A stretch of 64,000 nucleotides of DNA, from NCBI GenBank assembly GCA_000146465.1, contig CP001946.1; one strand, 5' to 3'. Under the pieces are notes generated by a model. That model searched no databases and had not been told where the DNA came from. It worked only from the letters and a program-made list of their open reading frames with translations. This document shows, piece by piece, positions 5,557-49,507 of the stretch (position 1 is the stretch's first letter; each line of letters starts with the position of its first letter). Made by a program: the position numbers and the translations under genes.

Positions 5557-6063
5557 TTAATTCCTGATGTTTTTCCTTGGCTTCCAGAAAATGTTTTCTG
5601 GACGGCAGTATGTTTTCATTATAAATGTAAGGAGTATTCCAAAGCTATTGAAGGCCACAAACTGCACAGTGAAGTCGGGAATCACAATCCAGTCTACAAC
5701 CCTGTTCCCCCACACGGCCTTACCTTCGATGACTCCGACGGCTTTGATCACAACGCCTTCATCAATATAGGGCGAGCACTCCCACACTCTACATAGATTC
5801 TTTTCCCAGAGAATGTCAAGCACTCTCTTTCCCTTCAGGCAGAAGATAACAATGGTTGAAGATTTCTTCTCTACTATTCTATATACAGGCATGGATATAA
5901 GGTGTGGTATGACATTTGAAGGATACTCAATGGCCAAGAAGTGTGTGGTTGGATGTGTGGTTGTGTATCTTATGATGCTCTTGGAACAGTCTGTAGAAAT
6001 TATCTCGCATGAGAAACACAATACTGACGAGGCCATAACTAACCATCCAAACAGAATAAACAT
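5557..6063 (-). CDS. hypothetical small membrane protein (N- and C-terminal hydrophobic segments); weak resemblance to signal peptidase complex subunit SPC3
   Basis: ATG verified at 6061-6063. There is an N-terminal TM (FILFGWLVMASSVLCF) and a C-terminal hydrophobic stretch. Only 16 bp separate it from Rpn5. Confidence 0.45.
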   Translation of the reverse strand: MFILFGWLVMASSVLCFSCEIISTDCSKSIIRYTTTHPTTHFLAIEYPSNVIPHLISMPVYRIVEKKSSTIVIFCLKGKRVLDILWEKNLCRVWECSPYIDEGVVIKAVGVIEGKAVWGNRVVDWIVIPDFTVQFVAFNSFGILLTFIMKTYCRPENIFWKPRKNIRN

Positions 6064-23642: not shown

Positions 23643-24338
23643 TTAACTAACAAGACGCTCCATCAGATTGCAACAGTGGGGTAGAATCCAGAAGTCAAAG
23701 AGATGGCCTTTGTCTTCTCCCTCAATCAGAATTCTTCTAATGGCCTTCTTTTTCTTTTCAAATTTCTGGCCTGTATAAACAATTTTGTTGTTGTTCACAA
23801 ACTTAACATACTCCGAGGCAAGAAATTCTTCTTTGAATTTTTCTGTCCATTCTGTGATATTTTGATTTTGATTTGTCTTTGTTGAATTGCAGGCATCAAG
23901 AATAGAGAGAAGCTTTGCCCACCAAGCTTTCTTATCGCTATTAAAAGGACTGCTGATATCATATAGTTGGGAAAAAATTTCTTTGAACTCTTGTCCAATA
24001 TACAAGTTAAATTCCCTCAGGCTTGCTTTTCCTATCTCCTTCTCGATCAGCTTGTGTGCATCGATATACCATAAGCACACCTGCATCTCAAGCCCCTCAA
24101 GATCGTTCCGTATCTTGGATAGAATTTCTGTCATTTCCTGAGCAAACTCAGGTGTGTCTTCTCCCTTAATGTTCTCTAGGATGTTGTTGTTCAAGATGAA
24201 AAAAGAAAACTCGTTCGAATGTACTAAGGCCGATGCCTTCCAGGCCATCTCCAACAAATTCACAAGAATGAGAATCTTGGGCTCTTTGGTATAAGCAACA
24301 CATCGGAGAATAAGATTAAGGCGTGATTTTTCACTCAT
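23643..24338 (-). CDS. hypothetical protein (231 aa)
   Basis: ATG 24336-24338 overlaps the stop of the upstream primase gene (TCAT on + strand, i.e. ATGA overlap). No family recognised. Confidence 0.5.
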   Translation of the reverse strand: MSEKSRLNLILRCVAYTKEPKILILVNLLEMAWKASALVHSNEFSFFILNNNILENIKGEDTPEFAQEMTEILSKIRNDLEGLEMQVCLWYIDAHKLIEKEIGKASLREFNLYIGQEFKEIFSQLYDISSPFNSDKKAWWAKLLSILDACNSTKTNQNQNITEWTEKFKEEFLASEYVKFVNNNKIVYTGQKFEKKKKAIRRILIEGEDKGHLFDFWILPHCCNLMERLVS

Positions 24339-25576
24339 TTGTTAGGGCTTTTTACAATATCTCTTGAATCTCTCGGGCTGTCTTCCCCATCATTTCTATC
24401 AATACTTCTACATTCAATATAATATCTAATAGGAGTTACAACCAACTTGTCTTGTTTCCGTTGGACCAACTTTTCAAGAAACCTTGTGCATCTCCCGCTA
24501 AAAGTTCCCACACCCATTATATCTTCAATATCAACCTCTAATCCTTCAATCTGACTCCGAAGATACTCCCCGTCCTCAACAAAAGGACAATTGCTTTTTC
24601 TCTCCTCATTCGTTGTGTTTGCTATCTTCGAGCAGGTGAAGCAGGTGTAGTTCGCCCTTTTTCCTTCAAGACCATAGTTGTGCCTAATTGAATATAGATA
24701 TTCTTTATCAAAGACTTCTTTTCCTGCCTTGAACGATCTTCGAAAAAAATCTATTCCATCTTCAACACTCATGCCACAGTCCTTTAGGAAGAGACATAAT
24801 GTTTGTCTGTCGTTGTATTTAAGATGTCTATTCTTTCTCAGCCTTTGCATTATGGCCTTAATACATAGCGGAAAGTATTTCTCGGCGTCCTCTAATGAAA
24901 ACACAGTGTTCTTCTCACATGTTGTAGGATTCAGAAGTAATTTTGTGGCAAGGCTTTTCATCCTTTCGTCTGGATTTCTTAAAAACATCTCCACCAGCTC
25001 ATTCATCTTTCCTTCCAAGTACCTTCTGAACTCATTACCAAGTAGTGATCGGATCCCCTCGTCATTCAGCTTGAGATATCCTCCCTCAGGTATAACTATT
25101 CTTCTTCCAACCATATCAATCACCTTTGTAAAGTGGACGAGAACCTCAGAGCTCATCATCCCAATTGCACAATCTGGATTGTATTTTGCTTTCATTCCAA
25201 GCACCAAGACCCCATTCCGAATCTCGGCTCCATCCATGTAAGGCAACACCTCTGTAAGGAAAAACTCCTTTGCACCCTCCGGATTTTTGGCCATTCTTAA
25301 CCGCAGTAAATTCACTTCTGCATTTACAAACCAAGTAGCTGCCCACGGATCTTGAGAACACACCATTCTACAGAAAAAGTGGGAGAGAGTATCATCTTCC
25401 GTGTCCATCTCAAAGCATCTGGAAACCGAAGGATTTACTTCTTCGCGCTTCAGAATTTCTATTCTTCTTTCTGCACACTTCCTGAACGTTTCGTAGTCTA
25501 CTGAACTCTTGGAAAGCATAGTATAAAATTTAATTCCAGGCAATTCGTCTCCCTTTGCAGCCTTTATTCTCTTCAT
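24335..25576 (-). CDS. PRI2: DNA primase large subunit (PriL/Pri2)
   Basis: Conserved PriL block RQTLCLFLKDCGMSVEDGIDFFRRSF...KEYLYSIRHNYGLEGKRANYTCFTCSKI, including the Fe-S cluster cysteines. The N-terminal helical domain is present. Confidence 0.85.
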   Translation of the reverse strand: MKRIKAAKGDELPGIKFYTMLSKSSVDYETFRKCAERRIEILKREEVNPSVSRCFEMDTEDDTLSHFFCRMVCSQDPWAATWFVNAEVNLLRLRMAKNPEGAKEFFLTEVLPYMDGAEIRNGVLVLGMKAKYNPDCAIGMMSSEVLVHFTKVIDMVGRRIVIPEGGYLKLNDEGIRSLLGNEFRRYLEGKMNELVEMFLRNPDERMKSLATKLLLNPTTCEKNTVFSLEDAEKYFPLCIKAIMQRLRKNRHLKYNDRQTLCLFLKDCGMSVEDGIDFFRRSFKAGKEVFDKEYLYSIRHNYGLEGKRANYTCFTCSKIANTTNEERKSNCPFVEDGEYLRSQIEGLEVDIEDIMGVGTFSGRCTRFLEKLVQRKQDKLVVTPIRYYIECRSIDRNDGEDSPRDSRDIVKSPNK

Positions 25577-26427: not shown

Positions 26428-26850
26428 TCAGTATCCAGAACATCCTCTACATCCACAGTTGTCGCATCTTATAGCCCTCGCAACGTCGATACTTCTCTCG
26501 GGAACTCTGCATATGCATACATTTCCATGCTTGCTGTCAATGGGCTGGATGCATCGGAGGCAGCATAGGTCTTCATATCCCTCTTTTTTCCAATAACAAA
26601 CTAATTCATGGTCCACAAATCGGTTTAGTGAAAGATATTTGTATAGCTCATTACTTATCTCGCCTTTTTTATCTAAATTATATATGTATCTAGATCTCTG
26701 GTGATGGAGCTGGAAAATCGGCCAATAGTTTTCGGGAGGATTTGTAGCAAGAGGAGCATTCTCCGCTTTTCTCATTTCTGTCTCTATTTTCTCTAGGAAA
26801 GCCTTTACTTTCTCAAACTCCTCTGGTGGATTGATTGGAATTCTTGTCAT
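26428..26850 (-). CDS. BUD31: Bud31/G10 spliceosome-associated protein
   Basis: G10 signatures are present: WPIFQLHHQRSRYIY, LYKY, WKKEGYEDLCCLRCIQ and CICRVP, plus the terminal CDNCGCRGC zinc cluster. Confidence 0.9.
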   Translation of the reverse strand: MTRIPINPPEEFEKVKAFLEKIETEMRKAENAPLATNPPENYWPIFQLHHQRSRYIYNLDKKGEISNELYKYLSLNRFVDHELVCYWKKEGYEDLCCLRCIQPIDSKHGNVCICRVPERSIDVARAIRCDNCGCRGCSGY

Positions 26851-26951
26851 TCAACCCAATCCGGGGCTCCACACAATAAATAAAATTGTGCTGCATCCAT
26901 GTGCTTGTCGTCACAGATCTTGTCTTCTTGTTTCAGATTTTTTTGAATAAA

Positions 26952-28685
26952 ATGGATATTTTATTCTTTAAAACAATGCAAGGAAAACTTACAGGGCTAT
27001 TGACTTTGCTGTTAGGATCGATAGGAGCTTCAATAGTTAAGGAAAATACCCTTGGAAGCCCAGACCTTAGAACTTCAGAAGTATTATACTCCAATGGAGC
27101 CTGCAGCACAGAAGTTCCACTGTGCTCGAGGCTTGGAGTCAAAAAACTCATGGAGGGTGGAAATGCAATCGATGCAGCAATCGCATCTGCCATATGTATT
27201 GGAATAATAAACTCTTTCTCGTCGGGAATTGGAGGTGGTGGGTTTGTCCTAATCAAAGGCCCAGATGGAAGCAATATGTTTGATATGATAGACTTTAGGG
27301 AGGTAGCCCCTAAAAGCCTTTCTTCAGACAAACTTGAGGGAATGGGAAGGACAAAGGTAGGAGGTCTGAGTGTTGGAGTTCCTGGAGAAGTCCTTGGGCT
27401 GTACGAGGCACATCAAAAGTACGGAAAACTTCCATGGAAGAACTTATTTCCCGAGAACATAGCAATCGCTAAAGGGTTTCCTGCTAGTAACCAGCTTATA
27501 AAGAGAATCAATAAGTTCAGCAGCTATGTGAGGAGTGATCCGGGACTAAAAGAAGTTTATACAAGAAATGGAGTTCTCCTTAAAGAGGGGGATATAGTTG
27601 TGCGTAAAAACTATGCTAAGACATTGGAGACTATAATGAACAATCCAAAAAGCTTCTACACAGGCGAACTTGCAGACTCGATTGTCAAAGCTGTAAGGGA
27701 AAAAGGAGGACTGATGGAAAAGAAAGACCTTGAGAAGTATCGGATTATCCATAGAGATGTTCTGGAAGGAAGATATCACGACTATAAGGTTTATACCACG
27801 AACCTTCCAACAAGCGGGGCATTGATATTGAGAGCCCTTAACATACTTGAGAAGTATGATCTAAAGAAGCTAAAGGAAGATAGTATAAAAAACGGGAACT
27901 TTAAATATATCCACTTACTAATCGAGGTCTTCAAGTTTGCCATGGCAAGGAGGGGAGAGCTTGGAGATCCTGCATTTCTCCCGGGATGGGAGAGGATAGT
28001 AGAGGAAATAGTCTCGAAAAAGGCAGCAGAAGAGGCTTATAAGAAGATAAACATGGAAAAGATTTTGGACGTAAAAGAGTATGGAATAAAAGCAAGAGGA
28101 GTTGAAGATCATGGAACAACACACATAAATGTTATAGATAAGGAAGGAATGGCAGTGCTTCTTACAAGTACAGTGAATCTTGAATTTGGGGCTCAGTTCA
28201 TGGATCGTAAAACAGGAATAGTGTTCAACAATACCATAGACGACTTCTATGTCTCGTCTTTAGACAACTCCCATGAAAAGCATCCCAATGAAGTAGAAGG
28301 AGGCAAAAGACCGTTCTCCTCTATATCTCCTGTTATTCTACTTAAGGATGACGAGATTCTTACCCTGGGTGCAGCAGGGGGAATAAGGATTCCTACATCC
28401 ATTATCTCTACAATATTCTATCTTTCGACGGGAGAGAATCTGCGAGAAGCCATAATGGAAACAAGGATTCATAACCATCTATCTCCGGACACGACGTTTG
28501 TAGAATACAACAGTCCAAGGAAACTCTGGAAATATCTTAGCGGGGTTGGACATAGAATAGAGAAGTCGCTTCAAAACACTGTTTTCACTTCTGTCCAGGG
28601 AATTTTCCTGAAAAAGATTGGTGGAAATAGAGTTATCCAAGCTGTATCGGATCCTCGGAAAGGAGGAGAAGCCTTTGGGTATTAA
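26952..28685 (+). CDS. gamma-glutamyltranspeptidase (GGT, Ntn-hydrolase) with N-terminal signal peptide/anchor
   Basis: GGNAIDAAIASAICIGIINSFSSGIGGGGFVLI and the autoprocessing/catalytic region HGTTHINVIDKEGMAVLLTSTVNLEFGAQF...TLGAAGG. Track start is TTG 26886. The first ATG is 26952, giving MDILFFKTMQGKLTGLLTLLLGSIGAS. Confidence 0.9.
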   Translation: MDILFFKTMQGKLTGLLTLLLGSIGASIVKENTLGSPDLRTSEVLYSNGACSTEVPLCSRLGVKKLMEGGNAIDAAIASAICIGIINSFSSGIGGGGFVLIKGPDGSNMFDMIDFREVAPKSLSSDKLEGMGRTKVGGLSVGVPGEVLGLYEAHQKYGKLPWKNLFPENIAIAKGFPASNQLIKRINKFSSYVRSDPGLKEVYTRNGVLLKEGDIVVRKNYAKTLETIMNNPKSFYTGELADSIVKAVREKGGLMEKKDLEKYRIIHRDVLEGRYHDYKVYTTNLPTSGALILRALNILEKYDLKKLKEDSIKNGNFKYIHLLIEVFKFAMARRGELGDPAFLPGWERIVEEIVSKKAAEEAYKKINMEKILDVKEYGIKARGVEDHGTTHINVIDKEGMAVLLTSTVNLEFGAQFMDRKTGIVFNNTIDDFYVSSLDNSHEKHPNEVEGGKRPFSSISPVILLKDDEILTLGAAGGIRIPTSIISTIFYLSTGENLREAIMETRIHNHLSPDTTFVEYNSPRKLWKYLSGVGHRIEKSLQNTVFTSVQGIFLKKIGGNRVIQAVSDPRKGGEAFGY

Positions 28686-28702: not shown

Positions 28703-29905
28703 CTACTTTCCTCGGAGGAGATAATAAGCAAGGTACAGGCCTTCAGTGGATACCTTTTCATAGGGAATCACCTCTACCCTTTCGTCATCCATCCTATACC
28801 ACTTGCCTCCAAATATGGCATAGGAAAGATAATGGCCATAAGTAATGGATCCACGATGGCTTATAAACCCTAAAACATCATAGATCCTTTCTCCCACGGC
28901 TAATGTATTTGATAAGGCTACATGGGAATCGATTTTTCTGGACACTCCTTCATAGGAGAATCTCTTTAGATGAAGAGATAAGACCCTTGGATATCTTTTG
29001 ACTTCCAACCTTTTTGTGCATAACCCTTCTTCCTGGCAAGCTTCACACATTACCTCATCCTTCAAGTCCTCGGTTCCAAGGAAGATGTCCAACGATGACT
29101 GGATAGAAGGAAGGCATTCAAGAGGAATTGTTGCAAATGCTTCTTCTTTTGTTTTCTTAAGATTACAGTTTCTACACAGCATTGTCGAGGAAAACATCCC
29201 GAAGAATGTTCGATGAGATAAGCATTTACAGGTGATCTCGTCTGTAGACTGGAAGTCATATGCCTCGTGAATCTTTTGGAGAAGGCATACAAAGAATTCA
29301 TGCACATCCTGCTGCATAGATCCTACAAAGTGAGGAACCAGAAGCCACATTGTGTGTATGAACTTGTGCGTAAGCACACACTCAGAGCCATATGAATAGT
29401 CAATTAGAGACTTCATGGCACACATTATACACCTGCTGTCTCTACACTTGAACCTTGTATGTGTATTTGACAAAAGTTCGTCTCTTATTGGACATAGATT
29501 GATCATTATACTAAGAACTGCGTTTATATAGCACGTATTTCCAAGGTTTGAAAACCCTTTGAGGGGGATGTATGGAAAAACTTCATACAGTGATGAAGAG
29601 ATACTAACTATGACTGTGTCTTCTATTCTGTTGGTGAGGCTTCTCAAGAAATACCTCCTAGCACATACAGCACAAGAGATAACAGAAGAAGTAGGATCAA
29701 GAAATACTTCATGGCTATGCAATCCCTTGTCTGTGCTACAAAGGAGACAGTAGCATTGTAGGCATATTTGTAGGTCTATTGAAGTCTTGCCGGCATTGCA
29801 CCGGGTACTCAATCCCTTCTTTTTGAGATGGCCCAGTTTTAAAGTAATCGCCTTGAGGATCTTTTCAACATTCTTTAGTGATTCAACATGTATACATAAA
29901 TTCAT
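28703..29905 (-). CDS. ubiquitin carboxyl-terminal hydrolase (USP) with N-terminal ZnF-UBP; Ubp8/USP22-like
   Basis: Cys box GFSNLGNTCYINAVLSIM. His box GSITYGHYLSYAIFGGKWYRMDDERV. N-terminal Cys/His-rich ZnF-UBP (CIHVES...LQICLQCYCLLC...HSHE). Confidence 0.85.
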   Translation of the reverse strand: MNLCIHVESLKNVEKILKAITLKLGHLKKKGLSTRCNAGKTSIDLQICLQCYCLLCSTDKGLHSHEVFLDPTSSVISCAVCARRYFLRSLTNRIEDTVIVSISSSLYEVFPYIPLKGFSNLGNTCYINAVLSIMINLCPIRDELLSNTHTRFKCRDSRCIMCAMKSLIDYSYGSECVLTHKFIHTMWLLVPHFVGSMQQDVHEFFVCLLQKIHEAYDFQSTDEITCKCLSHRTFFGMFSSTMLCRNCNLKKTKEEAFATIPLECLPSIQSSLDIFLGTEDLKDEVMCEACQEEGLCTKRLEVKRYPRVLSLHLKRFSYEGVSRKIDSHVALSNTLAVGERIYDVLGFISHRGSITYGHYLSYAIFGGKWYRMDDERVEVIPYEKVSTEGLYLAYYLLRGK

Positions 29906-29936: not shown

Positions 29937-31190
29937 ATGACACTTTTAAAGATACAAAGCCAAATAAACAAATTAATCGTCTTGTGTCCTCCATTTGATA
30001 TGATCGGGCAGAAGAGAGCCTCAAAAGAAGACCTGAGTATATGCGGTTGTTCAAGAACCTTTAGAAGAAGGGAAGAGAGTGACACAAGTGAAAAAACACA
30101 TTACGAAGTCGTGCAAAATAAGGTAACAACAATAACCAAAACTAACTTCTTCAAAAGATTGATATGGTCTATTCTTATGATCTCGGGTTTCTTTTGGATT
30201 TGTGTAAACAATAAGATATACTCTTTCATCTTGATCATCTTTTTAACAATATCTATCATAAGAGAAATGATTGGAATCACAAAAAAATCTGAAGGAAGGC
30301 CTTTTCATCTTCGAGTATCAATCCTTTTCGGGTTTTCTGTGCCGATATATCTTTACTTGGTCTTTCCTTCGATAATGGGTGTCTATTTTCCTGGACTTCC
30401 GAAGTACTTTTTTCGGAGATTATCTTTCATATGCTTTTACAGCTATGTAGTTGTATTTATGTCTTTTGTTGCTTCACTTAGAAAGGGAAAGCTAAAGTCA
30501 CAGCTGGGACTGTTTGCCTTGGTCCACCTATCTACGTATATAATGGCGATAGTAGCAAAATGTGCAATCTTCAACCTTAATAAGGGGAGGTTCTGGTTTA
30601 TGTTTCCTGCTCTGCTTGTTATATCAAATGACATCTCGGCATACGTTGTAGGGAAGAGCATTGGGAAGAGGCCTCTTTACCGCCTTAGTCCAAAGAAGAC
30701 ACTTGAGGGATTCATAGGGGCCTTTGTTTTTACGGCAATTGTAGGATTTGTACTGGGATATCTTCATGTGAACAGTGGATTTTTGAGGGATGGGGACTCT
30801 GAACAATTCCAGAAGCTTATAAAGTTCAAAGCCCTTGGAATGAGTCTGAAAATACAAAGTATATATATACATATCATTCCATTTGTTCTCGTAACGTCAT
30901 TTGTGGCACCGTTCACAGGGTTTCTTGCAAGTGCACTAAAGAGAGCCTATAAGAAGAAGGACTTTGGAGAGACGATTTCTGGACATGGAGGAATAGCAGA
31001 CAGAATGGATTGCCAGATATTAGTTGGGATTTTTACATCCACATATATAAACTCGTTCATCTACACAGAAGATAAGTCAATAGGATCAGTATTCGGTTTT
31101 ATATGTAGAAACTTCAGTTCCGAAGAAATAATGATTCTCATCGAGATGCTGAACCGAAGAATAGAAGGCATAAGAGGCAGGGAGCATTAG
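29937..31190 (+). CDS. CDS1: phosphatidate cytidylyltransferase (CDP-diacylglycerol synthase)
   Basis: Polytopic membrane protein carrying the CDS signature LKRAYKKKDFGETISGHGGIADRMDCQ. Confidence 0.9.
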   Translation: MTLLKIQSQINKLIVLCPPFDMIGQKRASKEDLSICGCSRTFRRREESDTSEKTHYEVVQNKVTTITKTNFFKRLIWSILMISGFFWICVNNKIYSFILIIFLTISIIREMIGITKKSEGRPFHLRVSILFGFSVPIYLYLVFPSIMGVYFPGLPKYFFRRLSFICFYSYVVVFMSFVASLRKGKLKSQLGLFALVHLSTYIMAIVAKCAIFNLNKGRFWFMFPALLVISNDISAYVVGKSIGKRPLYRLSPKKTLEGFIGAFVFTAIVGFVLGYLHVNSGFLRDGDSEQFQKLIKFKALGMSLKIQSIYIHIIPFVLVTSFVAPFTGFLASALKRAYKKKDFGETISGHGGIADRMDCQILVGIFTSTYINSFIYTEDKSIGSVFGFICRNFSSEEIMILIEMLNRRIEGIRGREH

Positions 31191-43555: not shown

Positions 43556-44782
43556 ATGTGTAGGAAGACTAAGGGAGTGTTCCTTTTGTTCTTTTCTGTA
43601 AGACTTGGCATAATGCTTTGGGAGGTTAGATTTCAGCACCTCTATTCCTCATATCTGGAAAGAGGACTGCCATGGTTTAAGCCAGATACTTTGACAGGAA
43701 AGATGGCTACTGATGGAAGATTGTTTGGCGATGCACAGCTCAAAGCTTCAAACCTTAGGCTCAAAAGCCTGTATAAAGAGATGAAAGCTCTTGTGCTGTA
43801 CATGGGAGTTGTATTCTTGATATTCAACAACAAGATCCGAAGCAAAGCAATCAGGTTGTTGGGATTTCTTTGGATACCCAATTCAGAAGTAATGTTCCTA
43901 TTACTTCTGATTTCCACAATTACCTTTATAGAGAAACTCTGTGGTGTAGGGCTCACACTAGTAGAAGGCACGTGCAGTGTGAGATATATAGAGTATCCGT
44001 TTAATATGGTAGTTTTATTTCTTGTAGAGCTCCCACTCACAATATGCCTCATAATAAAGCTTTTTGAGCTCCTGAGGAAAAAGACTATGGCGACATTCTA
44101 TGCTGCCTTTGTAATAAGCAACTTATTCAACACCTTTTGGAATGCAAGGATAGATAAGAACAGGCTAACCAAGGTTCCTCTTGAGAAGTTTCCGTCGAAA
44201 CTACAAGCGATGCTTAAGTCCGAGGGACTGGAAGAATCGATCTACAAAGTTAAAGGCACCCAAGAGAAAAAAAATGCATCTCTGATTGGATTTAGCAGCT
44301 TTAAAAGAATTGAAATAACCGGAGACTTTGACAAAGATCCAAAAAAACTATATCCTGTCCTGTTCCATGAAATAGGCCATTCGATTGATAACATTATACT
44401 AAAGAAAAAGATTATTATACACATAATAGTGGGATGCGAGGCGTTAGCATTTTGGTTGATTTATGTAAAAGGAAGCAAGGCTTTTGGATTTTCAGACATA
44501 ACGTCCGAGTCATTTGTCTTGATCATTCTTGCCATGTATCTGGTTCTTGGAAGGACTTTGATCCTTATCCCTTTAAATATGTATGTGCAGCGTTCGGAGT
44601 TATTTGCCGATGAAATTGCATTGGCAAACGGACATGGAAAAGAGCTTTCTCAAACACTGTTTGACATGGCTTTAGAGCACAGCACAGTTATTGATACGAC
44701 ATATCTTTTCAATGCGATAGCATCGTTACATCCTATTGTTAGAGAAAGAATCGATAGATGTGGAAGTCTCCTGCAGAAATAG
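43556..44782 (+). CDS. STE24: Ste24-family (M48A) integral-membrane zinc metalloprotease, paralogue A
   Basis: Multi-TM. NASLIGFSSFKRIEITGDF aligns to ZMPSTE24 NAYFYGFFKNKRIVLFDTL. Zinc site HEIGHS (HExxH). Downstream glutamate in QRSELFADEIA (compare FEFQADAFA). C-terminus LHPIVRERI (compare SHPPLLERL). Confidence 0.75.
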   Translation: MCRKTKGVFLLFFSVRLGIMLWEVRFQHLYSSYLERGLPWFKPDTLTGKMATDGRLFGDAQLKASNLRLKSLYKEMKALVLYMGVVFLIFNNKIRSKAIRLLGFLWIPNSEVMFLLLLISTITFIEKLCGVGLTLVEGTCSVRYIEYPFNMVVLFLVELPLTICLIIKLFELLRKKTMATFYAAFVISNLFNTFWNARIDKNRLTKVPLEKFPSKLQAMLKSEGLEESIYKVKGTQEKKNASLIGFSSFKRIEITGDFDKDPKKLYPVLFHEIGHSIDNIILKKKIIIHIIVGCEALAFWLIYVKGSKAFGFSDITSESFVLIILAMYLVLGRTLILIPLNMYVQRSELFADEIALANGHGKELSQTLFDMALEHSTVIDTTYLFNAIASLHPIVRERIDRCGSLLQK

Positions 44783-44807: not shown

Positions 44808-45398
44808 ATGAATGGAATTGAAGACAGCAATCCATTTGAAGAGCTTAAAGAATATGAAGTGGTTGTGGCATACGACGATGAAAACAAGAAGCTTTCCAAC
44901 GTAATGAAGGATAGAGGGCTTGATTATGTCGAGGTGAATCTGGCGGTTTCTGAGAAGCTCAGGACAGAATTTATGAAACATTTTAGAGTTTCTGAACTCC
45001 CTGTGCTCTTGATTGAAGGAATACCTGCTCTTGACGATCCAAGTGAAAGGATTAAGGAGTATATTGAGAGAAAAGAGAAAAAATCCTTAGAGAAAATTCA
45101 GAGTGTGATTGATCCTAACAAGATTACTCTTTTCATTAAGGGATCCCCCGAACATCCAAGATGTGGATTCACCAAGTCCCTTATAGAAATTTTGTATGGC
45201 TTAGGAGTAACAAGGGATAAAATAGAATACCTTGATGTTCTTTCAGATGAGGATATTAGGGAGAGACTAAAAGAAATAAACAGATGGCCCACTTTTCCAC
45301 AGGTATACATTAGGGGCCGATTCATAGGGGGGTTGGATATTGTCCGAAAGATGTCTGAAAAAGGAAAGCTTAAAGATGAACTCTCAGGAATAATCTGA
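44808..45398 (+). CDS. monothiol glutaredoxin, Grx3/Grx4 (PICOT)-type: Trx-like + CGFS Grx domain
   Basis: The C-terminal Grx domain KGSPEHPRCGFTKSLIEILYGLGV...WPTFPQVYIRGRFIGGLDIV carries a CGFS active site. The N-terminal half is thioredoxin-like. Confidence 0.85.
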   Translation: MNGIEDSNPFEELKEYEVVVAYDDENKKLSNVMKDRGLDYVEVNLAVSEKLRTEFMKHFRVSELPVLLIEGIPALDDPSERIKEYIERKEKKSLEKIQSVIDPNKITLFIKGSPEHPRCGFTKSLIEILYGLGVTRDKIEYLDVLSDEDIRERLKEINRWPTFPQVYIRGRFIGGLDIVRKMSEKGKLKDELSGII

Positions 45399-45458: not shown

Positions 45459-46673
45459 ATGAAGTACCTTTCTCGAGGGATGTTCTATTTGTTCTTCATG
45501 CTTACGTATCTTGCCCAGATGATAGAGGTCTTGAATGTATTGATCACCAAAAGTCATCTGGACTCTGGACAAACAGGAATTGAAGAAGGACTAGCAACAA
45601 ACGAAATGGCAAAGAAAGATCAGGACTATGCCCCCAAAGCCAAGAAAGCAATAGGAAAAAGAAACAAGGAGCTACTTGAGGATATAGTGGCACACACTAT
45701 CCATTTTACCGCCAACATCTTGTTCTTTACTGGGATTGGAAAATCGTTTAGCATGAGAATACTTGGCAAGATCTTTGGGGAGATATTTGACCTTGAGATT
45801 GTGTTCCTTACAGCCGTAATTTCGATGATTTCCCTTGATGGTTTTATAGAGTATATTGTCTGCTTGGTATATAAGAATCCGTCGCTAGAAATGATTTTCT
45901 TGTGGTGTTTCTTTGCAATTGTATTTGTTATCCCAACATGTATCCTCATTTCTATAAAGCTCTTGAGGATCTTTGGATCCAGTTTCGTAATTTCCTGTTA
46001 TCTCTCCTACTTCATTCTGGAGATATCTGATATCTTATCTGTATCCAATGTGGATTTTAGTAAGATGGAGAAGGTGCCATCAAATATATTTTCGGAGAAT
46101 GTCCAGGTTCTTATGAAGGACAGAGGGCTTTCGGATTCTATCTATAGAGAAATAAATCCGGGAAAGAACGTCAATGCAGCTCTTATAGGGATTGGCGGTG
46201 CTGAGAGGATTGAAATCTACGGAAAAGTCGAGAATATGAACGATGGACAGCTGGAATCTATATTGATTCATGAAGTAGGACATTCCTATGATGGAAGTTT
46301 GGTCAAGAAGATATCGGTCTTTTTGATTCTTCTGGGTTTTGAAATGATGCTTTTAGTATTCTTGTACGATAACATAGCAAAAGAATTCATATGGAACAAT
46401 ATTTCGAAGGAGGGGTCATTTGTAGTGCTTGTATGCCTTTATTTTGCATCAATCCGTCCATGGTTGTTTATTCTGTATAACCTTACGTCTCAAAGTGCAG
46501 AGATGTACGCAGACCTTTTAACAAAACAATATAACTACAATGGAAAGCTGGCAGATACTCTATACAAGATATCTGTGGACTCCTTTGATTTCCTGGCACC
46601 ATCCTGGCTGTACAACAGCTTAAACTCGTTACATCCCAGTATAATGAACAGGATTGAATATCTAAGCAACTAA
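45459..46673 (+). CDS. STE24: Ste24-family (M48A) integral-membrane zinc metalloprotease, paralogue B
   Basis: Same architecture as paralogue A: NAALIGIGGAERIEIYGKV, HEVGHS, QSAEMYADLLT and LHPSIMNRIEYL. Track start at 45411 is TTG. The first ATG is 45459. Confidence 0.75.
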   Translation: MKYLSRGMFYLFFMLTYLAQMIEVLNVLITKSHLDSGQTGIEEGLATNEMAKKDQDYAPKAKKAIGKRNKELLEDIVAHTIHFTANILFFTGIGKSFSMRILGKIFGEIFDLEIVFLTAVISMISLDGFIEYIVCLVYKNPSLEMIFLWCFFAIVFVIPTCILISIKLLRIFGSSFVISCYLSYFILEISDILSVSNVDFSKMEKVPSNIFSENVQVLMKDRGLSDSIYREINPGKNVNAALIGIGGAERIEIYGKVENMNDGQLESILIHEVGHSYDGSLVKKISVFLILLGFEMMLLVFLYDNIAKEFIWNNISKEGSFVVLVCLYFASIRPWLFILYNLTSQSAEMYADLLTKQYNYNGKLADTLYKISVDSFDFLAPSWLYNSLNSLHPSIMNRIEYLSN

Positions 46674-47499: not shown

Positions 47500-48408
47500 T
47501 TATGTTTCATCAGGTATGTCATACGTACTTAGATATCTATTTTTCTTCCTTACTCCTATCTTCGTGCAGTATTCAGACTCAAAACTTACTTCACTGTCGG
47601 TATAGTCTTTTTTATAGTGCTTTTTGAGTTCAACAATAGCTCTGGTTAGAGAGTCTCTCTCTTTTAGTAGGCTAAACAAGGAAGGACTATAGACTCTATT
47701 CAAGATAGACTTAAGTTCTTCGTCTGTTGGAAGACATTTTCTTGCAAACTCTTTGAAGTAGAACTCGTCGACTTTTGGATTTCTATGAACTATGAGTCTT
47801 AATGCCTCAAGGAGACCTAGTTCATGGTATATGTACTTCAAAGACTCCAAGGAAAGTTGTTCCATATATTTTCTGTTGCAATGCTTTTTAAACAAGGCAA
47901 TCTTTGAATTTCCGCACAGCTTATCCTTACATCCGTTGTTGTTATTGCAAAAATCCTCAAGAATCTTAGTGAAGTAGCTAAAGACATCGATGCTGAAATG
48001 AGTAAATAAGTATTTCAATATTCTGCCGATTATCTTGTTGTATGTATCCGATCCACAGCAAACCTTTTCGTTTTGTGTCTTCTCATGTATGAATATTTGT
48101 AATAGTAGCCGTTCTATTGTTTCATCACGGAAGTTTAAGGATGCAATCCTCTGCATTGCACCATCATAGTCCTCAAAATAGATATAGTTGTATAGTATTT
48201 CATGATTATATATAACCTTTTGGTTCCCGACTAGCTTGTGCTGAAGAGCTTGAATAGCCTTGTTTTTTTGGTTAGTTCTTCTGTAGATGCTTGCTAAGAC
48301 CGAAGGATTTCTCCTCAAAATCTTCTTTGTTATACTTTTGTCCAACAGGCCTGTGTCACAGTTGGGTGTCCCAAAAATAACCAAGTCCTTTTTTCTTATC
48401 AAGCTCAT
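47500..48408 (-). CDS. hypothetical protein (302 aa), Cys-rich central region
   Basis: ATG verified at 48406-48408. No family recognised. Confidence 0.55.
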   Translation of the reverse strand: MSLIRKKDLVIFGTPNCDTGLLDKSITKKILRRNPSVLASIYRRTNQKNKAIQALQHKLVGNQKVIYNHEILYNYIYFEDYDGAMQRIASLNFRDETIERLLLQIFIHEKTQNEKVCCGSDTYNKIIGRILKYLFTHFSIDVFSYFTKILEDFCNNNNGCKDKLCGNSKIALFKKHCNRKYMEQLSLESLKYIYHELGLLEALRLIVHRNPKVDEFYFKEFARKCLPTDEELKSILNRVYSPSLFSLLKERDSLTRAIVELKKHYKKDYTDSEVSFESEYCTKIGVRKKNRYLSTYDIPDET

Positions 48409-48541
48409 GGATATTGATCTTAGGGTTTTGTATAAAATTCACATAATTGGTTGGTATGATGTTCTGGAGAAATCGGCTTGTGATTGGACATTCAGTATAA
48501 GTGGGATTGGACGAGTATTGGATATAAGAAAGAGGAAAGCA

Positions 48542-49507
48542 ATGGGGATGGACACCAAGATTAAGATAGATCTAGACAAGGAGATGTATCCCGGGGGGTC
48601 TGAAGTAAGAGGAGCCGTTGACATAAAGATGAGGAGTCCTCTTCGGATAAGTAAGATAAATCTGGTGTTCTCTAAGACAACAAGACTAAAGATACAGGAG
48701 ATTGAGAGAAAGGAAAATACAGAGAACAACGAAGTCGAGAAGATATATGATGGATACAGACATGAATTTGAGATATACTCAAGTGATGACCCATTAGAAG
48801 AGGTATCTAGTGGGCACCATCGATTCCCATTCCGATTCATGCTCCGGAGAGAAGACGAAGGATCTCTTGAAATAAAAGGAGTCTACTTTGATATCCTGTG
48901 CAATATAAGAAGTATATACGACTTATATGCAGAGATTTATATCCTTGGAGTTCACAATCCGGCATATACTGTCCGAAGAGAGATACAAATAGTAGATCCC
49001 ATCATGGAGCCCAGGAACTTTAATACAGCCATTGATGTGCTATCACCCATCTGCTTTCTAAGTAGGAGATATAACATCCGTCTTGAAGTTGACAAGGAAT
49101 TCTATTACTCGGGAGACTGTCTAGTTACTGAAGCTTCTATACCATCTAAGAAGCCCAAGATTAAGAGAATGGAGTGCTTTATATATGAAATTCTCAGCGT
49201 TTCTGTGGAAGGAAAAGAGATTCTTAGGACAAAATACATTGGAGGGGGAGAGGCCGAACATTATGATGGTGGAAGAGTCCTTCGGGCATCCCTGAAGATA
49301 CCTTCAACAACACCATCCACTGTCATGGGCAGTAACTTCAGCATAAGAGTTGTTTTGTTCATAAACCTTGAGCTGTATAGAGGAACACCTGTCCGAATCA
49401 AGAAATACATTCATGTCATCAAGAAAAATATAATTCATCCAGAAATTGATTGTATGGATGTTCTTGAGGGAGAAATATATCCGGAAAGAATACTTGTATT
49501 ACCATAG
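48542..49507 (+). CDS. arrestin-fold protein (arrestin-related trafficking adaptor or Vps26-like)
   Basis: The N-terminal block MGMDTKIKIDLDKEMYPGGSEVRGAVDIKMRSPLRISKINLVFS resembles arrestin-N. A second beta-sandwich half is predicted. The track ORF extends upstream to 48287 and overlaps the divergent neighbour. ATG 48542 is preferred. Confidence 0.5.
   Translation: MGMDTKIKIDLDKEMYPGGSEVRGAVDIKMRSPLRISKINLVFSKTTRLKIQEIERKENTENNEVEKIYDGYRHEFEIYSSDDPLEEVSSGHHRFPFRFMLRREDEGSLEIKGVYFDILCNIRSIYDLYAEIYILGVHNPAYTVRREIQIVDPIMEPRNFNTAIDVLSPICFLSRRYNIRLEVDKEFYYSGDCLVTEASIPSKKPKIKRMECFIYEILSVSVEGKEILRTKYIGGGEAEHYDGGRVLRASLKIPSTTPSTVMGSNFSIRVVLFINLELYRGTPVRIKKYIHVIKKNIIHPEIDCMDVLEGEIYPERILVLP

Follow-up and report, generated by a model that had tools for sequence, protein, structure and literature searches.

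Gamma-glutamyltranspeptidases (GGTs) are already known from the organisms considered here, as most microsporidian genomes and all the sequenced Encephalitozoon have this gene annotated as a GGT. The E. intestinalis protein is on record as MEROPS MER222733. Microsporidia cannot make amino acids. Animal enzymes of the GGT1 type are type II signal-anchored proteins that retain a hydrophobic N-terminal transmembrane segment, ~20 residues or longer, and human GGT1, with a type II anchor of ~22 residues, is also heavily N-glycosylated. Lid-loop-positive GGTs, which occur in eukaryotes and Gram-negative bacteria, carry a loop of ~12 residues with a gating aromatic. This aromatic controls how solvent and substrate reach the active site, a role in favouring transpeptidation has been proposed for it, and GGTs without the loop have open pockets and accept polymeric substrates (PMC8062742). 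The oxyanion hole of the family is a Gly-Gly pair of the small subunit, G483/G484 in E. coli and G473/G474 in human (PMC8062742, PMC7949050). Bacterial GGTs that are periplasmic or secreted carry no membrane anchor but a cleavable signal peptide (PMC8062742), and in the intracellular pathogen Francisella the enzyme gains cysteine from host glutathione during intracellular growth (PMC2629122). Functional data on any microsporidian GGT were not found in the searchable literature, which returned only annotation tables and host GGT1.

Here, the GGT gene in a stretch of 64,000 nucleotides (the window) was compared with these systems. Our preferred reading, with a probability of about 0.85, is that its product is a functional gamma-glutamyltranspeptidase / glutathione hydrolase (MEROPS T03, Ntn hydrolase) of the eukaryotic type and that the gene was vertically inherited. 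Because GGT is already annotated and its descent is ordinary, the gene has little weight as a discovery. The useful outcome lies in corrections to the first-pass annotation of the window, namely a start at 26976, an oxyanion hole in GAAGG, the lack of horizontal transfer and the retention of the parasites' own glutathione synthesis. A modest lead is also provided by the maintenance of a GGT in ~2,000-gene genomes unable to synthesise cysteine, together with clade-specific changes in an active-site loop.

Coding sequence and translation start

The gene is a single uninterrupted open reading frame on the + strand that ends at 28685 (Table 1), and GC is ~40%. Against the Pfam profile PF01019 (G_glu_transpept), for which the curated cut-off is 27 bits, the protein scored 482 bits (E=2.9e-144) over profile positions 4-512 of 512. 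In addition, phmmer matched it to every solved GGT, with 240 bits for the E. coli enzyme, 188 for the human heavy chain and 103 for the human light chain. These matches establish membership of the GGT family and, with the catalytic residues kept (see below), bear out the earlier description of the gene as a complete GGT in a reduced genome, here a microsporidian one. As judged from its sequence, the frame encodes a complete, intact gamma-glutamyltranspeptidase (PF01019 / MEROPS T03, Ntn hydrolase), and the enzyme is probably active.

The first-pass annotation placed the start of the protein at ATG 26952. This codon falls at the 3' edge of, or inside, a conserved upstream box that may be promoter-like, whereas the ATG at 26976 lies within the invariant AAACAATG, common to the window, E. 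cuniculi, E. hellem, Encephalitozoon sp. and Ordospora. Upstream of this conserved ATG, the frame is interrupted by a stop in E. hellem and lacks any ATG in E. cuniculi. The start was consequently moved to 26976, and the eight-codon extension preceding it is probably not translated.

Table 1. Features assigned to the GGT locus, in coordinates of the window.
Feature	Position	Strand	Basis or remarks
Conserved upstream box TGTTTCAGATTTTTTTGAATAA	26929..26950	+	BUD31/GGT divergent intergenic region; invariant columns in window, E. cuniculi, E. hellem, Encephalitozoon sp. and Ordospora
Upstream in-frame ATG extension, 8 codons (MDILFFKT)	26952..26975	+	Start in the first-pass annotation; extension not conserved
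GGT coding sequence from conserved ATG, 569 aa + stop	26976..28685	+	ORF, Pfam, start conservation, AlphaFold2, fold matches
Putative leader MQGKLTGLLTLLLGSIGASIV	26976..27038	+	Basic n-region; stretch of 17 aa with no charged or strongly polar residue; small residues (G-A-S) before possible cleavage site
Large (heavy) subunit region	27039..28115	+	Contains C50, C74, GGGGF, R108; aligns to human GGT1 heavy chain residues 34-348
GGGGF motif	27231-27245	+	Large subunit
R108 codon	27297-27299	+	Residue mapping by alignment
Thr381 codon, predicted autoprocessing site and catalytic nucleophile	28116..28118	+	Thr389 if numbered from 26952
Small (light) subunit	28116..28682	+	T399, N401, T420 (replacing E/Q), D423, short lid loop, S448/S449, K562
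Shortened lid loop	28248-28304	+	Alignment
Gly468-Gly469 of GAAGG, oxyanion hole	28377..28382	+	Aligned to human G473/G474, E. coli G483/G484

Catalytic residues and predicted fold

The light chains of the human, E. coli, Bacillus and H. pylori enzymes begin at the first T of 'EDHG-TTHINV', which corresponds to Thr381 of the window GGT. The autoprocessing threonine claimed previously is thus present at the first residue of solved light chains, and the mutation of this residue that had been named as the sign of a pseudo-enzyme was not what we found. Thr381 and Gly468/Gly469 are invariant across 55 aligned homologues. R108, T399, N401, D423, S448/S449 and K562 are likewise conserved, most of this set of residues being invariant in the same alignment. 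Five of the six gamma-glutamyl ligands (human/E. coli Arg107, Asn401, Glu420/Gln430, Asp423, Ser451 and Ser452) are kept, as R108, N401, D423, S448 and S449, and the catalytic apparatus is intact. The motif GGGGF, which had been regarded as the oxyanion region, does exist in the protein, but it belongs to the large subunit, and the oxyanion hole corresponds to G468/G469 of GAAGG.

The AlphaFold2 model of the protein (pLDDT 90.5, pTM 0.90) matches the Ntn-hydrolase GGT fold. Foldseek searches with this predicted model returned GGT precursors at a probability of 1.00, with E=1e-40 and a target-normalised TM-score of 0.88 for the E. coli precursor, and the lowest rmsd (1.8 Å) was obtained with the human GGT1 heavy chain, at target-normalised TM-scores of 0.89-0.91.

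Descent of the gene

Horizontal acquisition had been suggested for this gene on the basis of its GGGGF motif, described as more fungal and bacterial than animal. GGGGF is found in E. coli, Bacillus and all the sampled fungi and human GGT has GGGLF, but a motif shared by the fungi is uninformative as to transfer. A transferred gene is expected to have its closest relatives outside the group, a patchy distribution and a broken context, and the GGT shows none of these marks.

Orthologues are found in >20 named microsporidian genera. The window GGT is 72-76% identical to Encephalitozoon GGTs (~75% to each of E. cuniculi, E. hellem and E. romaleae) and 66% identical to that of Ordospora. Outside the microsporidia, identities decrease from fungi (39-41%) to human (36.6%), E. 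coli (33.9%) and Bacillus (31.9%), and this order of fungi, human and bacteria is the one expected for vertical descent. Early-diverging fungi were the next-best database matches after microsporidia, and no match named as bacterial appeared among the best 120 of 5244, some of the matches being unnamed.

An unrooted neighbour-joining tree was built with 200 bootstraps, in which one sequence was metazoan and two were bacterial, these three being rebuilt from PDB alignments. The microsporidian GGTs formed one clade with 100% bootstrap support when computed without P0078 and P0081, two fungal-type matches (0% with both included), and the branching within this clade appears to follow, in broad terms, the accepted species relationships. 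A bipartition of fungi plus human received 68% support, and the tree does not resolve fungi from human. The genomic context is conserved as well: the position of the GGT next to BUD31 is kept in E. cuniculi, E. hellem, Encephalitozoon sp. and Ordospora. A UCH gene downstream of the GGT is present in the window and E. hellem and absent from E. cuniculi and Ordospora. The pair Cys50/Cys74, which we take to form a disulfide in human GGT and for which the conservation of both cysteines was compared here, is found in the human sequence and in 20 of 20 from fungi, whereas both bacterial sequences lack it, and the C-terminus reads ...RKGGEAFGY here versus ...RKGGEPAGY in human.

The gain of a bacterial-type GGT by horizontal transfer could be argued from the GGGGF motif common to E. 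coli and Bacillus but replaced by GGGLF in human, and from the long microsporidian branch, which joins near the split between bacteria and eukaryotes in the unrooted tree with its 68% support for fungi plus human. We consider such a gain extremely improbable, as GGGGF occurs equally in all the sampled fungi, bacteria come last in the ranking of identities, no match named as bacterial stands among the best 120 (some being unnamed), the eukaryote-specific Cys50/Cys74, K562 and C-terminus are present, the large subunit of the predicted model is structurally nearest to the human one, and both microsporidian monophyly and synteny hold. The suggestion was to be dropped if the GGT proved to be vertically inherited and general among related organisms, and that is what the >20 genera, the 100% clade, the fungi-first order of identities and the conserved synteny reveal. 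Vertical descent and conserved synteny are established: the GGT was inherited by Encephalitozoon-type microsporidia from fungal-like ancestors, and horizontal transfer is not supported. Transfer within the Microsporidia is effectively refuted.

Clade-specific changes in the active site

The remaining gamma-glutamyl ligand has changed. At the position of human E420 / E. coli Q430, a ligand of the alpha-amino group, Thr is found here and throughout the Encephalitozoon/Ordospora clade. Furthermore, the lid loop is shortened by 3 residues relative to human GGT, and its gating aromatic (human F433 / E. coli Y444) is a His. Short lid loops lacking the aromatic were found only in Encephalitozoon/Ordospora, whereas other microsporidia keep a full loop with Phe or Tyr. 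AlphaFold2 confidence is lower around the loop, with means of 75-94 for blocks of 10 residues over residues 401-450. As a consequence of the E420-to-T and lid-loop changes, substrate preference or the balance between transpeptidation and hydrolysis may differ in these enzymes.

Loss of activity or an altered specificity, for example as a pure hydrolase, a glutaminase or an enzyme for bulkier gamma-glutamyl substrates, would be compatible with the restriction of both changes to Encephalitozoon/Ordospora and with the open pockets of lid-loop-less GGTs, which take polymeric substrates (PMC8062742). Against this, the loop is shortened and not deleted, and the nucleophile, the oxyanion hole and all the other gamma-glutamyl ligands are intact. 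Moreover, the 66-76% identity across Encephalitozoon and Ordospora, with invariant active-site motifs, is as expected of a working enzyme. We therefore regard this alternative as improbable, and its pseudo-enzyme version in particular was ruled out by the intact catalytic residues.

Leader, location and putative role

The protein begins with a putative leader that includes the hydrophobic stretch LTGLLTLLLGSIGASIV, of 17 aa. Leaders were assigned heuristically, from the length of the stretch without charged or strongly polar residues. The same stretch measures 14 aa in E. cuniculi and E. hellem and does not exceed 17 aa in 56 of the 57 microsporidian orthologues that have such a leader, so that short hydrophobic N-terminal leaders are typical of microsporidian GGTs. 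AlphaFold2 models the leader as a helix of low confidence over residues 2-22, with a disordered linker behind it. As to the signal peptide or anchor proposed earlier, a secretory-type hydrophobic N-terminus is indeed present. Because of the shortness of the stretch, the leader resembles a cleavable signal peptide, and by this heuristic a stable type II anchor is the less likely of the two. Published predictions for the T. hominis orthologue, however, are 'N' from SignalP and no transmembrane helix from TMHMM (Heinz 2012, Table S16), which means that secretory targeting is not secure.

According to the mechanism that we propose, the 569-aa precursor would enter the secretory pathway via its short leader and would cleave itself between Gly380 and Thr381 to yield the large and small subunits. 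The new N-terminal Thr381 would then attack the gamma-glutamyl bond in glutathione or in another gamma-glutamyl compound, while the backbone NH groups of Gly468 and Gly469 would stabilise the tetrahedral intermediate, and the predicted products are glutamate (or a gamma-glutamyl peptide) and Cys-Gly. The active site would face away from the cytosol, towards the parasite surface / parasitophorous vacuole or else into an internal lumen resembling a vacuole, where the enzyme could recover cysteine, glutamate and glycine from the glutathione of the host or of the parasite itself. Such recovery is the most likely role because microsporidia, which are unable to make amino acids, yet make their own glutathione.

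That synthesis is documented. E. cuniculi and T. hominis retain GSH1 and GSH2 (PMC5216125), T. hominis, with reductases and peroxidases of its own, is described as using imported Glu and Cys to make glutathione (PMC3486916), and glutathione synthesis by microsporidia themselves has been reported (PMC10199888). With GSH1 and GSH2 retained, microsporidian thiol metabolism is not simply host-dependent, and the host-dependent thiol economy envisaged in the first-pass annotation was an overstatement. Part of that view was a glutaredoxin gene 16 kb away from the GGT. This gene is real (44808-45398, 16.1 kb downstream; PF00462, E=1.1e-19), with CGFT as its active site, and the monothiol glutaredoxin motif CGFS was not found in a six-frame search. 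The link drawn between the two genes went too far, as ~14 unrelated housekeeping ORFs separate them and no further glutathione gene was found within the 64-kb window. Functional clustering of the GGT with the glutaredoxin gene was ruled out for this latter reason.

Two locations were weighed for the enzyme. It could be exported to the parasite surface or secreted into the parasitophorous vacuole, specifically degrading host cytosolic glutathione and feeding Cys (and Glu and Gly) to an amino-acid auxotroph. Such harvesting corresponds to the salvage idea put forward in the earlier annotation and is a sub-case of our preferred reading. It is suggested by the signal-peptide-like leader, by the conservation of K562, S448/S449 and N401, whose human counterparts contact GSH (PMC7949050), by the description of T. 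hominis GSH as made 'given imported glutamate and cysteine' (PMC3486916) and by the Francisella precedent (PMC2629122). However, SignalP was negative for the T. hominis orthologue (Heinz 2012, Table S16), and the nearest characterised fungal enzyme, yeast Ecm38p, is vacuolar and not at the surface (PMC7617739). Salvage of host glutathione for cysteine is a plausible candidate role, the surface location itself being a tentative proposal; if the GGT does harvest host glutathione, this would constitute a nutritional dependency. The enzyme could also reside in a vacuole-like or endomembrane lumen and turn over the parasite's own glutathione, GSSG and conjugates, as S. cerevisiae Ecm38p does. The phylogenetic proximity to fungal GGTs and the synthesis of GSH by microsporidia (PMC10199888, PMC5216125, PMC3486916) are consistent with this location, which we also put forward tentatively: the leader is shorter than a typical membrane anchor, the sequence yields no vacuolar sorting information, and nothing separates the internal location from the surface one.

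A more elaborate scenario, which we hold to be doubtful, is that remodelling of the GGT in Encephalitozoon/Ordospora has produced a glutathione hydrolase that is soluble and secreted, has a more open donor pocket and strips cysteine from host glutathione in the parasitophorous vacuole. It would be supported by E420T, by the short lid loop that lacks the gating aromatic and by the replacement of the membrane anchor with a short signal peptide. If true, the enzyme would be a nutritional virulence factor like Francisella GGT and a possible drug target (acivicin, GGsTop).

Comparison with known systems

The annotated GGTs of E. cuniculi, E. hellem, E. romaleae and Ordospora colligata (565-567 aa) have the same type of leader, the same catalytic motifs, T in place of E420 and the short lid loop, and the window differs from these orthologues by an additional ATG in frame, 24 nt upstream. 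An exact look-up of the window protein gave no identical sequence in the collection searched. Among the best 120 of 5244 matches, the closest relatives outside the microsporidia are fungal GGTs (Mucoromycota, Mortierellomycota, chytrids and Basidiomycota; 38-42% identity), which share with the window enzyme GGGGF, Cys50/Cys74, K562, a lid loop and an active site away from the cytosol; unlike it, they keep E/Q420 and a full-length lid loop with Phe. The yeast enzyme, Ecm38p/Cis2p of S. cerevisiae, which was likened by its description, is anchored in the vacuolar membrane (PMC7617739), in contrast to the short microsporidian leader.

Human GGT1 (PDB 4gdx, 4z9o, 6xpc) coincides with the window protein in the numbering of T381, T399, N401, D423 and K562 and in the conservation of C50 and C74. 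It departs from it in GGGLF, E420, F433, a lid loop 3 residues longer and cysteines 192, 196 and 454, which are not conserved here. Finally, the periplasmic or secreted GGTs of bacteria (E. coli, H. pylori and Francisella) have the same fold and catalytic mechanism, but they differ in their identity of 32-34%, the absence of Cys50/Cys74 and the Ser or Arg at the position of K562, and they are not the evolutionary source of the window gene.

The GGT gene and its start codon

The GGT gene occupies a single uninterrupted plus-strand ORF, in a window of ~40% GC with about one gene per kb, where the genes around it are housekeeping genes of ordinary eukaryotic type. Depending on the start, the ORF comprises 599 codons (TTG), 577 (ATG 26952) or 569 (ATG 26976). 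The start at 26952 in the first-pass annotation was not upheld when the intergenic region of the divergent BUD31/GGT pair was aligned for five Encephalitozoon/Ordospora loci. An invariant AAACAATG (26970-26978) was found at ATG 26976, whereas the eight-codon extension from ATG 26952 was not conserved among the compared loci and corresponded to a region with an in-frame stop in E. hellem. In E. cuniculi, no in-frame ATG precedes the conserved start. ATG 26976 is thus the most likely start, judging from this comparison, and residues are numbered from it. The same alignment revealed a conserved box, TGTTTCA..TTTTGATAAAT, 26-47 nt upstream of ATG 26976 and with ATG 26952 at its edge, which reads TGTTTCAGATTTTTTTGAATAA in the window and is common to the five loci. 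This box and the AAACAATG start context may constitute a core promoter or initiator element.

In the GGT of Encephalitozoon sp. (protein P0004, locus L005, ~5968-6000) the annotated start looks truncated, and a conserved upstream ATG adds residues that yield a classic signal peptide, MACLSILLALMLGLALASA/PKEE.

Features of the window discussed in the text
Feature	Position	Strand	Remarks
DNA primase large subunit	24335-25576	-	neighbour
Unknown ORF			neighbour, 233 aa
BUD31	26428-26850	-	neighbour
Conserved box	26929-26950		BUD31-GGT intergenic region
GGT, most likely ORF	26976-28685	+	569 aa plus stop
GGGGF	27231-27245	+	within large subunit
Autoprocessing/nucleophile Thr	28116-28118	+	codon
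GG of GAAGG	28377-28382	+	predicted oxyanion hole
UCH-type deubiquitinase	28703-29905	-	directly downstream of GGT
CDP-diacylglycerol synthase	29937-31190	+	neighbour
Peptidase M48 (Ste24-like)	43556-44782	+	flanks glutaredoxin
Glutaredoxin	44808-45398	+	196 aa; PF00462, E=1.1e-19; active site CGFT
Peptidase M48 (Ste24-like)	45459-46673	+	paralogue, flanks glutaredoxin
ORF of first overlapping pair	47500-48408	-	first-ATG start
ORF of first overlapping pair	48287-49507	+	first-ATG start
ORF of second overlapping pair	57401-58273	-	first-ATG start
ORF of second overlapping pair	58026-60062	+	first-ATG start

A UCH/USP deubiquitinase gene lies 3' of GGT in the window, E. hellem and Encephalitozoon sp. 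At the syntenic spot (loci L001-L005 compared) it is absent from Ordospora and from E. cuniculi, where a 265-bp spacer gave no tblastn remnant. In T. hominis a C19 UCH and GGT bear the consecutive numbers orf_1955 and orf_1956, which may mean adjacency; GSH2 is orf_1958. This suggests that the UCH-GGT neighbourhood is an old microsynteny with lineage-specific losses. Elsewhere in the window, two opposite-strand ORF pairs overlap at their 5' ends by 122 and 248 nt (an unknown ORF with an arrestin_N protein, and an acyl-CoA thioesterase with RFC1); their true starts are probably downstream ATGs.

Family membership, catalytic residues and fold

The best protein matches were annotated GGTs from E. 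romaleae (76% identity), E. hellem (75%), E. cuniculi (72%) and Ordospora colligata (66%), the first three being about equally distant (~75%) from the window protein; an identical entry was absent from the protein collection. These matches assign the window to an Encephalitozoon-like microsporidian; the similar distances and the GC content would suit a fourth Encephalitozoon lineage, possibly E. intestinalis. The gene is already annotated as GGT in sister genomes, and that of T. hominis has been mapped to glutathione metabolism. No functional study of a microsporidian GGT was found in the literature searched.

The call of a complete GGT with its autoprocessing Thr was confirmed. The protein matched Pfam G_glu_transpept across the full profile (positions 4-512 of 512; E=2.9e-144) as well as all solved GGTs, and the first Thr of EDHG-TTHINV aligned with the light-chain start of the human, E. 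coli, Bacillus and H. pylori enzymes. As the light chains of solved enzymes begin at this Thr, the autoprocessing nucleophile is present. R108, T381, T399, N401, D423, S448/S449, G468/G469 and K562 were conserved when 26 microsporidian and 20 fungal sequences were aligned together with those of human GGT1, E. coli and B. licheniformis; the numbering coincides with the human one at several sites. Most catalytic residues were invariant in a 55-sequence alignment, and the AlphaFold2 model built on it (pLDDT 90.5, pTM 0.90) matched GGT precursor structures with E ~1e-40. Its tightest superposition was on the human GGT1 heavy chain (rmsd 1.8 Å, target-normalised TM-score 0.89-0.91).

GGGGF had been taken as the oxyanion region, an assignment that has to be abandoned since it lies in the large subunit and published structures place the hole at a small-subunit Gly-Gly, G483/G484 in E. 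coli (PMC8062742) and G473/G474 in human (PMC7949050). The predicted oxyanion hole of the window protein is the GG of GAAGG.

In the Encephalitozoon/Ordospora clade only, Thr occupies the position of human E420 and E. coli Q430, and the lid loop is three residues shorter; the gating aromatic F/Y is replaced by H, Q or A, with a gap in Ordospora. Other microsporidia retain E/Q and a full lid loop with Phe or Tyr. According to a review of bacterial GGTs (PMC8062742), this loop and its aromatic side chain regulate solvent and substrate access and affect transpeptidation, so kinetics or specificity may differ in this clade.

Vertical descent of the gene

Among the best 120 of 5244 significant matches, ~75 were of microsporidian type, followed by early-diverging fungi and a few Basidiomycota; none was named as bacterial, some matches being nameless. 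More than 20 named microsporidian genera were represented in these 120, including Encephalitozoon, Ordospora, Astathelohania, Hamiltosporidium, Conglomerata, Edhazardia, Spraguea, Trachipleistophora, Vavraia, Pseudoloma, Dictyocoela, Vairimorpha, Pancytospora, Glugoides, Enteropsectra, Nucleospora, Vittaforma and Cucumispora. Compared with the window protein, fungal GGTs were 39-41% identical, followed by those of human (36.6%), E. coli (33.9%) and Bacillus (31.9%). The order BUD31 (-), GGT (+) is kept in E. cuniculi, E. hellem, Encephalitozoon sp. (Logan assembly) and Ordospora.

In the tree built by neighbour joining from 534 columns (200 bootstraps; thinly sampled outside fungi, with two bacterial sequences and a single metazoan one), the 26 microsporidian sequences formed one clade with 100% support, and the two bacterial ones were set apart, also with 100% support. 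Branching within the clade broadly resembles the accepted species relationships. Horizontal acquisition had been put forward for testing from the resemblance of GGGGF to fungal and bacterial GGTs. The resemblance is real, as fungi and bacteria share GGGGF whereas human, the sole animal sequence compared, has GGGLF; but a motif common to fungi and bacteria is uninformative on origin, and genus distribution, ranking, synteny and tree leave transfer unsupported. The long branch of the microsporidia joins this thinly sampled tree close to the base of the eukaryotes. A very ancient transfer, formally compatible with the tree alone, is improbable in view of the database ranking and eukaryote-specific residues. 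Overall, the gene call was correct and its evolutionary interpretation unsupported.

A truncated microsporidian-type GGT (P0077, L006 8001-9173; ~50% identity over query residues 102-463) was detected on a 93-kb contig of an assembly labelled as the butterfly Maniola hyperantus, among ORFs that by eye are retroelement-like. It groups with Enteropsectra and Pancytospora in the tree. Either a transposon-rich microsporidian contaminated the assembly, or the fragment has become part of the host genome.

N-terminal leader

The leader, MQGK-LTGLLTLLLGSIGASIV-KE, has a basic n-region followed by 17 residues without charged or strongly polar residues, with small residues (G-A-S) where signal peptidase could cut. 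E. cuniculi and E. hellem each have a matching stretch of 14 residues; that of Ordospora has 16 and ends VSA/QE. In 56 of the 57 microsporidian orthologues having such a leader, the stretch does not exceed 17. The human GGT1 anchor has about 22 residues. A signal peptide or anchor had been predicted; the hydrophobic leader is present, but it is short for spanning a bilayer, and the heuristic reading favours a signal peptide over a type II anchor. This region has low confidence in the AlphaFold2 model. Cys50 and Cys74, which are disulfide-bonded in human GGT1, are common to human and all 20 fungal sequences and missing in both bacterial ones; such a disulfide, if formed, fits folding in the secretory pathway. 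The T. hominis orthologue is SignalP-negative, with no TMHMM helix (Heinz et al. 2012, Table S16).

Thiol metabolism and possible location

The glutaredoxin gene 16 kb from GGT is real, its product carrying a ~100-aa N-terminal extension before the CGFT active site and matching the description of a cytosolic Grx3/4-like microsporidian protein by Freibert et al. (PMC5216125). CGFT stands in place of the canonical monothiol CGFS. A functional link with GGT did not hold: of the ~14 intervening ORFs, the Pfam-matching ones are unrelated housekeeping genes, and no further glutathione gene was found among the 56 ORFs of the window, so the spacing carries no functional signal. The suggested host-dependent thiol economy is overstated: published work indicates that thiol supply in microsporidia is not a matter of host dependence alone. 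E. cuniculi and T. hominis retain GSH1 and GSH2 (PMC5216125), T. hominis is described as synthesising glutathione from Glu and Cys that it imports and as having reductases and peroxidases of its own (PMC3486916), and gamma-GCS and GS matter for infection in Nosema ceranae (PMC10199888).

The protein is most likely an active GGT with its catalytic site exposed to a non-cytosolic compartment. If situated on the parasite surface or within the parasitophorous vacuole, it may cleave host glutathione to Glu and Cys-Gly, as a cysteine source. An M17 leucyl aminopeptidase, listed in T. hominis alongside a related MEROPS entry from E. cuniculi (Heinz et al. 2012), is a possible Cys-Gly dipeptidase and might act in this pathway. 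Alternatively, the enzyme may recycle the parasite's own glutathione and conjugates in an internal vacuole-like lumen. Both locations fit the present results equally well, the former having a precedent in Francisella, which obtains cysteine from host glutathione (PMC2629122), and the latter in yeast Ecm38p (PMC7617739).
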